Shown one piece after another: positions 30,387-31,464 of a DNA stretch of 64,000 nucleotides. Under the pieces are notes generated by a model. That model did no database searches. It saw only the letters and a list, made by a program, of their open reading frames with translations, and had not been told where the DNA came from. The stretch lies in the NCBI GenBank assembly GCA_963759165.1, contig CAVWXK010000001.1, positions 3,137,497-3,201,496 of the forward strand. The letters are read 5' to 3'. Source of the DNA: an uncultured Pseudomonadota bacterium (lineage in GTDB: Bacteria > Desulfobacterota > Binatia > Binatales > Binataceae). The translations under genes were made by a program, and so were the position numbers. How positions within the stretch are numbered: the stretch's first letter is position 1; the number at the start of each line of letters is the position of its first letter.

Positions 30387-30423
30387 GCGGGCGACCGGGG
30401 TCGAACCGGCCACGTCCAGCTTG
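30387..30423. repeat. 37-nt direct repeat of the tRNA-Gly 3' half (att-like), 36/37 identical to 31394-31430
   Basis: gcgggcgaccggggtcgaaccggcCacgtccagcttg versus the tRNA gcgggcgaccggggtcgaaccggcAacgtccagcttg. Covers the acceptor 3' strand, T arm, variable loop and anticodon stem 3' strand. No 5' half is present, so this is not a gene. Confidence 0.85.
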
Positions 30424-30455
30424 TTTGGCGTCGGTCTCCATCGCCCGCATAGCCC

Positions 30456-30884
30456 TCAACTATCCCACTCTGACAACTCAAATTTCTTGCATTCCACGGG
30501 CGAGTCAGGGCTGTCCATCTTGTCTATGACCTTAACAAATCGGCCATCCGCGTATAGGTACGTTAGGATCGTTATGGCCTCGCCACGTCCTATACCAAGC
30601 CCTTCGAGACGGCGCTCGATGTCGTAGTATCCCTTGAATGCCTTAAGCTTCTCCTGATCGACAAAATATTCGTTCAGAATATCTTCCACGGCTTGCAACT
30701 TCGCCTCCGAAATGAATCCTATGCCCTTCAATTCCTCTTCGATCGAACGTTCGAAGCCGTTGAGAAGTCCATAGATATGCGCTTCGCGCGCCGGACAGGC
30801 GATCTTGTCGCCGCTTCGGTTTTCGATGCGATAGATCTCACCGAGGATCTTCCCCAAAAGGAGTTTGATTTGTTGATCTTCCAT
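30456..30884 (-). CDS. islet ORF B, hypothetical soluble acidic protein (142 aa)
   Basis: Starts 6 nt after the ORF A stop. Markedly AT-richer than the flanks. Sequence MEDQQIKLLLGKILGEIYRIENRSGDKIACPAREAHIYG.. carries no motif I recognise. Confidence 0.6.
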   Translation of the reverse strand: MEDQQIKLLLGKILGEIYRIENRSGDKIACPAREAHIYGLLNGFERSIEEELKGIGFISEAKLQAVEDILNEYFVDQEKLKAFKGYYDIERRLEGLGIGRGEAITILTYLYADGRFVKVIDKMDSPDSPVECKKFELSEWDS

Positions 30885-30890
30885 TGCCAG

Positions 30891-31376
30891 TCACCTCAGT
30901 CGCGTTTTGCGATCAAGTAGTCTTTTTGGGTAAGGCAGGAAACCCAAGAGGATTCGGTGGACCTCCCGTCCGGCCTGCCTTTTATCCTCAAAGGTCCGCG
31001 CTTGAGCGAGTTGTTCGATCGCGGGAGCAAGGGCCTCGCAGAGATTGGCCGCGGCGTTATCCGAGCCGTTTGCAAAGTGGTCCGATTGCTCCCTAAGGAA
31101 TACCAGGTACTCCTGAAGTTCCTCAGCGATGTCATGACAGTCAATGCCGCGCACCGTCGTCGCCGTGCAGGACGGTCCAAGCTTCCCGACAAGCTTTATG
31201 ACTTGCTGAGTCCGCGCGTGCACCTGAGAAAGTTCCGCAGTAGAAAAACGATCGACAATTTCCTGCCGCATCCGTTCGGCGTCATGAGCGGATGCGTGCG
31301 CGCGTCTCGCCTGCCGCCACGAGAGGAGCGCTCCGATGATAGAGGCCGCCGTGCCCGCGATCGTTAGTAAATCCAT
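30891..31376 (-). CDS. islet ORF A, hypothetical protein with one N-terminal TM helix (161 aa)
   Basis: MDLLTIAGTAASIIGALLSWRQARRA, then a helical region. The ATG lies only 13 nt downstream of the tRNA-Gly 3' end on the same strand. Confidence 0.6.
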   Translation of the reverse strand: MDLLTIAGTAASIIGALLSWRQARRAHASAHDAERMRQEIVDRFSTAELSQVHARTQQVIKLVGKLGPSCTATTVRGIDCHDIAEELQEYLVFLREQSDHFANGSDNAAANLCEALAPAIEQLAQARTFEDKRQAGREVHRILLGFLPYPKRLLDRKTRLR

Positions 31377-31389
31377 CGTTTAGTTTGCA

Positions 31390-31464
31390 TGGAGCGGGCG
31401 ACCGGGGTCGAACCGGCAACGTCCAGCTTGGGAAGCTGGCATTCTACCACTGAATTACGCCCGC
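31390..31464 (-). tRNA. tRNA-Gly (anticodon CCC)
   Basis: Folds manually. Acceptor GCGGGCG/CGCCCGC, D arm ATTC-AGTGGTA-GAAT, anticodon arm CCAGC-TTCCCAA-GCTGG, T arm GCCGG-TTCGACC-CCGGT, discriminator T, encoded CCA. Confidence 0.9.

Follow-up and report, generated by a model that had tools for sequence, protein, structure and literature searches.

Why should two genes, and nothing else, lie between an intact transfer RNA (tRNA) gene and a second copy of the 3' half of the same tRNA? The question is raised by a small islet within positions 30387 to 31464 of a 64,000-nucleotide stretch of contig CAVWXK010000001.1 from an uncultured bacterium of the Binataceae; this whole 64-kb stretch is called the window below. 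The two open reading frames (ORFs) of the islet are called A and B, and the same letters are used for their families. The answer proposed here, to which we give an even chance on the strength of sequence comparison, is that the locus may be a horizontally acquired islet resembling a cis-mobilisable element (CIME), carrying a module of the toxin-antitoxin (TA) or abortive infection (Abi) type with a membrane component. The features of the locus are the following, where att denotes an attachment site.

31390 to 31464, minus strand: intact tRNA-Gly(CCC) gene (ARAGORN; Rfam RF00005, 64.6 bits; ViennaRNA).
31394 to 31430, minus strand: direct repeat, copy 1, within the tRNA at its positions 35-71, attL side (repeat search).
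30424 to 31393: inserted islet between the repeats, 970 bp, low in G+C content (GC), with two genes and no recombinase.
30891 to 31376, minus strand: ORF A, 161 amino acids (aa; ORF list).
30456 to 30884, minus strand: ORF B, 142 aa (ORF list).
30387 to 30423, minus strand: direct repeat, copy 2, the displaced 3' half of the tRNA, attR side, not followed by CCA.

The tRNA-Gly(CCC) gene is the single tRNA detected by ARAGORN in the window, and in its minimum free energy fold (ViennaRNA) the acceptor, anticodon and T stems are formed, while the D arm is unpaired. The two repeat copies are identical at 36 of 37 positions, and the identity starts at the last base of the anticodon and runs through the acceptor stem; past this point the tRNA reads on T-CCA and the displaced copy C-CGT. 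When used as a degenerate pattern, the 37-mer matched exactly twice in the window, compared with no match in 100 shuffled sequences. The genes are packed closely between the two copies: 13 nucleotides (nt) separate the 3' end of the tRNA from the start codon of ORF A (TGCAAACTAAACG), 6 nt the stop of ORF A from the start of ORF B, and 32 nt the stop of ORF B from the displaced repeat. The positions of the tRNA and of the displaced repeat, the lengths of the two proteins and the three spacers had been reported in a first-pass annotation of this DNA, and they were reproduced with ARAGORN, Rfam and the ORF list. An acceptor-like 7-mer, GCGGGCG, located 5' of the remnant was considered as a sign of a full pseudo-tRNA; this reading was rejected because 8.7% of random windows reach the same score.

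The composition of the insert sets it apart from its surroundings, as the first-pass annotation had claimed. The 966 bp at 30424-31389 have a GC of 54.2% versus a window mean of 61.8% (standard deviation 3.1%), and only 0.5% of equal-sized stretches of the window have a GC as low. The GC at third codon positions is 0.60-0.62 in A and B, versus 0.75-0.84 in four flanking genes. The closest relatives in which A likewise precedes B (loci L078 and L079) have a GC of about 0.50, like the islet. ORFs A and B take up the space between the repeats, so that the islet has no room for a recombinase, in line with the earlier statement that none is present; when the ORFs of the window were searched by phmmer, with a tyrosine integrase and a serine recombinase as the two queries, none matched, although the sensitivity of this search is limited.

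The locus thus combines an intact tRNA at one edge, a direct repeat of its 3' portion at the other and a deviant composition, as tRNA-borne islands do, and departs from them in having no integrase gene of its own. It conforms structurally to the definition of a CIME, in that attL and attR are kept and the genes for integration and transfer are absent. The first-pass interpretation of this anatomy as an integration footprint is well supported, and a site-specific acquisition of the islet is very probable. Entry into tRNA-Gly(CCC) would have occurred by recombination of the tyrosine-recombinase type in the anticodon loop: an element whose attP carried the 3' portion of tRNA-Gly would have recombined with the anticodon-loop region of the chromosomal tRNA, so that the tRNA was rebuilt from element DNA and the native 3' half shifted to the cyclase side. 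Since the islet contains no recombinase, it could be either a minimal att-flanked, CIME-like element mobilised in trans or the last remnant of a larger island. The former is slightly favoured over an island that was deleted twice, because the genes are intact and flush with both repeats and no debris is left. The genes on the two sides of the islet are the following.

29514 to 30350: cyclase gene, flank on the side of the displaced repeat.
31555 to 32502: deoxyhypusine-synthase-like gene, flank on the side of the tRNA.

The layout to be expected of an empty site is tRNA-Gly(CCC), then '...CGCCCGCCCGTAAAAGATGC', then the cyclase gene. A second public contig of the same species, obtained in another sequencing run (L076), is 99.87% identical and also has the islet. 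Exact-protein look-ups of the flanking genes led to no contig other than this one. Elsewhere in the window, a stretch around 52-62 kb with a GC of 0.53-0.59 (minimum near 57000) may be foreign DNA, and so may a dip to 0.52-0.55 at 29000-29400, just upstream of the cyclase gene; an ORF of 75 aa with a CxxC...CxxC pattern lies inside this dip, at 29052-29279.

As to the proteins encoded by the islet, the first-pass annotation had recognised no family for either of them. This holds for Pfam, NCBIfam, PHROGs and PADLOC, where neither ORF A nor ORF B gave a significant match, but both proteins sit in sizeable, uncharacterised families. A first single-sequence search with ORF A returned no homologues. 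This was an artefact of the prefilter, and it is also explained by the public gene call, which annotated an antisense ORF here. The gene adjoining a B homologue in two other loci proved to be 34-38% identical to ORF A; a three-sequence profile of A recovered 75 proteins, and an exhaustive phmmer search 158 cluster representatives at E <= 1e-3. ORF A itself matches the family profile A4 with E = 7e-63. The antisense ORF chosen over ORF A by the public gene call encodes 136 aa on the plus strand (window 30957-31367; L076 51-461), and because the gene caller took it, the A protein of this genome is absent from protein databases.

The most hydrophobic 19-residue stretch of A is residues 1-19 (mean Kyte-Doolittle value 1.6), in agreement with the single N-terminal transmembrane helix proposed earlier. 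Across the family, the N-terminal 20 residues or so are hydrophobic, small residues form a conserved stripe along them (consensus SIxGSIASIGGAIWA), and a basic cluster comes next; the isoelectric point (pI) of the cytoplasmic part is 7.8-9.2 across the family and 8.6 in the A of the window. The AlphaFold2 model of ORF A (pLDDT 87.4) has one continuous helix at residues 2-66, and then a bundle. In a Foldseek search, one of the scans suggested in the first-pass annotation, this model matched generic four-helix bundles only (best E = 0.04). On these grounds A is predicted to be bitopic, spanning the inner membrane once, and to have a basic four-helix bundle in the cytoplasm. Its N-out, C-in topology is suggested by the positive-inside rule, as the basic cluster follows the hydrophobic helix.

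Several candidate identities of A were considered, and none was supported. On comparison, A is unrelated to YfbV (PF04217). In a library of 5027 models (PADLOC-DB 2.0), the best matches, to ZorA (E = 0.006) and to AbiTi (E = 0.0012; 6 of the 39 family members), do not reach significance; likewise, a weak match to PspM and a marginal one to a PHROG holin (phrog_1350, E = 9.7e-4, residues 2-61) are at or below chance level for the size of the library, and no endolysin or lysis context was found in any locus. A was found neither in 50,697 GenBank phages nor in the PLSDB plasmids, and in only one viral contig of IMG/VR, which is the same Agarilytica region as locus L012. Finally, a 155-aa transmembrane protein located 5' of a solo B in a Paenibacillus prophage was considered as a divergent A, and gave an hhalign probability of 2.5%.

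B is better represented. Its 80 homologues, of about 140 aa and 37-69% identity, are all annotated as hypothetical, and come from Pseudomonadota, Bacteroidota, Bacillota, Fusobacteriota, Myxococcota and Desulfobacterota. B is soluble and acidic, as described earlier (pI 4.8 in the window and 4.5-4.8 across the family), and its invariant residues cluster in LGKxLGExYR, YGLLNGFE, FKGFYDIE and SPxEC. The AlphaFold2 model (pLDDT 94.3, pTM 0.78) is all-alpha, with eight helices, and the best Foldseek matches have E = 5.4 in the PDB and E = 2.1 in BFVD, so that the predicted fold may be new. A divergent YfbU protein was considered and rejected: the hhalign probability of B is 1.2% against the YfbU partners described below and 0.1% against E. 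coli YfbU, and Foldseek gave no match to the YfbU structures 1WPB and 4LR3. B was not found in the 50,697 GenBank phages; the PLSDB plasmids hold one distant B only, on a Paenibacillus polymyxa megaplasmid. In IMG/VR, B is solo in 6 of 6 contigs, just upstream of an HNH/terminase module, a slot which is a typical site of accessory genes (morons). In five of these contigs (L069-L073), where neighbour functions were read from N-terminal sequences only, solo B lies a few genes 5' of an HNH-like CxxC protein and the terminase genes.

Do A and B belong together? To count the pairings, six-frame ORFs from every locus retrieved were searched with profiles of A, of B and of the YfbU partner. Adjacent A and B genes occur at 11 independent loci from several phyla, in two gene orders: A precedes B in the window (and L076), L078 and L079, and B precedes A in L001, L004, L013, L015, L016, L037, L053 and L054. 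The two closest relatives of the B of the window (68-69% identity) keep the order A then B. In eight full-length pairs, the identity matrices of A and B are correlated (r = 0.81, Mantel p about 2e-4), with a mean identity of 58% for B and 42% for A. The distribution is patchy across several phyla, with 50-60% identity between copies, and in the other loci the spacing between A and its partner is 1-15 nt, or the genes overlap. We are confident that A and B are a functional, co-inherited pair.

The description of the pair nevertheless needs qualifying, since A is found more often with a YfbU protein, and B is often solo. Among 37 metagenome loci of A, 30 have A followed by a YfbU protein (PF03887) and four have B immediately 5' of A; A lies at the contig edge in two, and the partner region is replaced by an IS91-like transposase in the remaining one. 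As all 37 loci are accounted for by a partner, a contig edge or an insertion sequence, a solo A was never encountered. The YfbU partners are true, if distant, homologues of YfbU, with a pI of 4.7; being acidic, they and B are charge-complementary to the basic cytoplasmic part of A. In a rough neighbour-joining tree of A, the lineages with A before B and B before A are deep, and those with A before YfbU form a large derived cluster. In contrast, among 19 species-representative genomes with B, B precedes A in three and is solo in about 14-16, four of these copies being truncated or frameshifted. These decaying copies (L024, L025, L027 and L028, around position 10000) are truncated in two Pedobacter genomes and frameshifted in one Myxococcota metagenome-assembled genome (MAG) and one gammaproteobacterial MAG; in L016 (666-1193), it is A that carries an in-frame stop. 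With YfbU as the commoner partner of A, and B often on its own, the module is better seen as a membrane component A whose soluble acidic partners are interchangeable. The asymmetry between A, never solo, and B, often solo, is as expected if A is harmful or useless without a partner.

The genomic contexts bear out in part the earlier expectation of a mobile or defence setting: BREX, integrase, relaxase/PARIS-like and superintegron neighbourhoods were found, but the picture is mixed and includes housekeeping neighbours. In a Hahellaceae MAG (L001), B and A, in this order, lie between the BREX genes pglX and pglZ; in Carboxylicivirga they directly follow a tyrosine integrase. On a Rariloculaceae chromosome (L015, 3473-12707), the succession is TrwC relaxase, DEAD helicase (BrxHI/SngC-like), B, A and an AriAB/PARIS-like ABC ATPase, which looks like defence cargo on an integrative mobilisable or conjugative element. 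In Vibrio cholerae (L007), A and YfbU lie exactly between two VCR attC repeats (7842-7984 and 9068-9212) and therefore constitute one superintegron cassette of about 1.2 kb. In Agarilytica (L012), the neighbourhood of A and YfbU includes an AIPR protein and a serine recombinase, and the same region appears among the IMG/VR contigs; in Halomonas they lie downstream of thiC, after an integrase fragment and a Mob protein. A census of 126 neighbouring proteins from 18 further loci contains resolvases, a relaxase, an IS21 helper, type I restriction-modification subunits and PAAR/Imm33, and also nuo/mrp, thiC and methyltransferases. Two side observations concern these loci. The gap between pglX and pglZ in L001 (7010-10886) contains three more unknown genes (456, 257 and 551 aa), of which the 551-aa protein matches the PADLOC candidate PDC-M72B (E = 2.6e-13), and may hold larger embedded defence cargo; and A with YfbU is located just 3' of thiC in two genomes (L010, 3665-9069; L039, 2891-6187), which may be a recurrent insertion hotspot.

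How such a compact unit could be expressed is suggested by its arrangement. The gap between tRNA and A is too short for a promoter, and no sigma-70-like site was found on the strand of A and B. A weak TTGAAT-18-TAGACT pair can be read from the sequence 5' of the tRNA, and A and B could plausibly be co-transcribed with the tRNA and then processed to a transcript with a short leader. ORF B is preceded by GAGGTGA, which resembles a Shine-Dalgarno sequence.

Taken together, these data make a role of A and B in biological conflict somewhat probable, as far as can be judged from genes and their neighbourhoods. The defence role is suggested by the genomic contexts, by the fact that integron cassettes act as defence reservoirs (PMC12614218), and by the presence in the YfbU family of the defence protein Kamadhenu (PMC11381338, PMC12184496, PMC13064643). 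More tentatively, A may be a membrane-acting effector. A and B would form a physical complex, in which the acidic cytoplasmic partner (B or YfbU) would restrain or control A, and may also act as sensor; a trigger such as phage infection would release or activate A, which would self-associate in the membrane by means of its transmembrane helix with the small-residue stripe and impair membrane integrity, leading to growth arrest. The most far-reaching version is that A with B or YfbU is an undescribed, widely mobile Abi system with a common single-pass effector and interchangeable acidic sensors, that B has a new fold, and that the islet was moved in trans by a tRNA-Gly-specific integrase and is expressed from the tRNA promoter. 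This version is unlikely as a whole; if it were true, the copy in the window would be a tRNA-site analogue of integron cassettes.

A number of observations weigh against a mobile conflict module. As for the islet itself, no empty site, cognate integrase or attP-bearing element was found, either by the look-ups of the flanking genes or with the att core pattern, which had no match in IMG/VR; nor was there any tRNA near the other loci (75 loci, 737 kb), so that the tRNA setting is specific to the window. ORF A has no recognisable Shine-Dalgarno sequence, and the public gene call preferred the antisense ORF on the same DNA. As for the proteins, neither A nor B has a significant match among the known anti-phage systems of PADLOC-DB 2.0. 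B would seem to be dispensable and not strictly tied to A, as it is often solo and sometimes a pseudogene, and solo B occurs in ordinary chromosomal positions, for example after an ORF of 494 aa, which we take to be lysS from its N-terminal sequence. A membrane partner is not required for defence of the YfbU type, because Kamadhenu works as a single gene. Furthermore, in E. coli K-12 (NC_000913.3, 2412100-2413132; L080) yfbV lies directly 5' of yfbU on the same strand, a layout which allows a non-defence reading. As for the neighbours, they include housekeeping genes (thiC, nuo/mrp, uvrA), and PADLOC matches to mad2, mad3 and mad8 had to be rejected as evidence for a defence island, at least one of them (in L016) being UvrA: at L016 1299-4121, the mad3 and mad8 models score E = 3e-95 on a protein that Pfam assigns to UvrA. 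The PADLOC census of neighbours was discounted for this reason, and the case is a caution for neighbourhood-based defence calls in general.

Three other explanations should be considered. The soluble partner, B or YfbU, might be a complete sensor and effector, and A only an accessory membrane tether or regulator; A would then never occur alone because it has no function without its partner, and not because it is toxic. We regard this as fairly unlikely, although Kamadhenu, which consists of YfbU only, gives abortive infection by itself (PMC11381338), most genome loci and all six viral contigs have a solo B, B is the more conserved of the two (58% versus 42% mean identity), charged or polar residues of B are invariant at many positions, as would suit an active or binding site, and A is only a generic helical bundle. 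The stripe of small residues in the transmembrane helix of A is typical of self-associating membrane helices, and the architecture of A, which is kept across two unrelated partners, suits a common effector better than an adaptor; moreover, B showed neither a catalytic motif nor a known fold.

The remaining two explanations both appear improbable. Cross-phylum patchiness and foreign GC, the BREX, integron cassette, integrase, relaxase, PARIS-like and AIPR settings, and the existence of pseudogenised copies are hardly what would be expected if A and B were a membrane-associated physiological module without a part in conflict (acting in the envelope, in chromosome-membrane organisation or in stress) that hitch-hikes on mobile DNA. 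The model for such a module would be yfbV-yfbU of E. coli K-12, with yfbV directly upstream of yfbU and YfbV linked to insulation of the Ter macrodomain (PMC3330122); several loci of A with YfbU adjoin thiC or nuo/mrp, and there is no PADLOC match, but A is unrelated to YfbV, and B to YfbU. The islet could also be the stump of a decayed prophage, satellite or island, with A and B as leftover moron, superinfection-exclusion or counter-defence genes that have no current role in the host. The missing integrase would fit this, as would the B homologues in prophages and in IMG/VR contigs just 5' of the HNH/terminase module, and the mere integrase fragment that adjoins A and YfbU in Halomonas. However, both genes are complete, each covering its family profile over the entire length, and they are flush with the repeats (13 nt and 32 nt), where neither junk DNA nor a pseudogene fragment lies; decay would thus have required two independent near-perfect deletions; a second sample has the same intact islet at 99.87% identity, and A occurs in one viral contig only (Agarilytica, as in L012) and in no GenBank phage.

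Should A and B indeed be a conflict module, two uncharacterised families would join the defence/TA repertoire, one of them with a predicted fold that has no match in the PDB or BFVD. They would also provide a mechanistic handle on the mode of action of YfbU and Kamadhenu: a shared membrane output step with exchangeable inputs is suggested by the fact that the same partner A serves both YfbU and B. The contrast between A, which is never solo, and B, which often is, also in phages, makes a testable prediction about which component is toxic. If, instead, the module has no role in defence, it would still shed light on the conserved pairing of the yfbV-yfbU type. In either case the islet is an unusually clean integrase-less unit, flush with tRNA-derived att sites, and it bears on the transfer of small cargo, by trans-mobilisation or by cassette-like behaviour outside integrons.

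How does the islet compare with systems already known? One of the closest is Kamadhenu, a validated Abi system of lactococcal plasmids made of a single YfbU (PF03887) protein (PMC11381338), escape mutations from which map to a Sak-like single-strand annealing protein of the phage (PMC12184496). The Kamadhenu paper was the only one found in a full-text literature search on PF03887, and none was found that links YfbU to integrons. The connection is that a YfbU of the Kamadhenu family takes the position of B beside A in the 30 of 37 metagenome loci mentioned above, and that the Kamadhenu family and B are both small, acidic, all-helical, cytoplasmic and located on mobile DNA. On the other hand, Pfam, hhalign and Foldseek all place B outside the YfbU family, and Kamadhenu consists of one gene and lacks a membrane partner. 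The yfbV-yfbU pair of E. coli resembles A followed by YfbU in having the gene of a small membrane protein and then that of YfbU, and YfbU proteins may pair with small membrane proteins in general. It differs in that YfbV (PF04217) is unrelated to A, in being a conserved core locus and not mobile cargo, and in that the window carries B instead of YfbU.

With type II TA systems the islet shares the layout, namely a pair of small neighbouring genes on mobile DNA that share their orientation and lie close together, but no recognisable toxin fold or DNA-binding antitoxin was found with Pfam, NCBIfam, PADLOC or Foldseek. A parallel in genetic organisation is provided by the TA and defence cassettes of integrons (PMC12614218), which, like the islet, are compact, promoter-less, tight two-gene units between recombination sites; the sister pair of A and YfbU is itself such a cassette in the V. 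cholerae superintegron. The islet, however, is bounded by tRNA-derived repeats and not by attC, and would need a tRNA-targeting tyrosine integrase and not IntI. CIMEs (PMC6323972) correspond to the islet in keeping att-like repeats with no genes for integration or transfer, in their position at the 3' part of a tRNA gene and in their foreign composition. The CIMEs described are mostly from Firmicutes. For the islet, the pattern search in IMG/VR identified no integrative and conjugative or integrative and mobilisable element sharing its att site. With its 970 bp and two genes, the islet is also far smaller than any CIME known to us.

A two-component abortive infection system that combines a membrane effector with a cytoplasmic partner is RexA/RexB of phage lambda. 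The proteins have no sequence or fold similarity to A and B, and RexB has four transmembrane helices, unlike the single helix and large cytoplasmic bundle of A. Nevertheless, a small operon on mobile DNA that encodes one membrane and one soluble protein is common to both, and so would be the proposed logic, in which the soluble protein senses and the membrane protein kills. Set beside these systems, the pair of A and B, for whose families no published description was found, would represent a mobile two-gene module of the TA/Abi type residing in a CIME-like tRNA islet.

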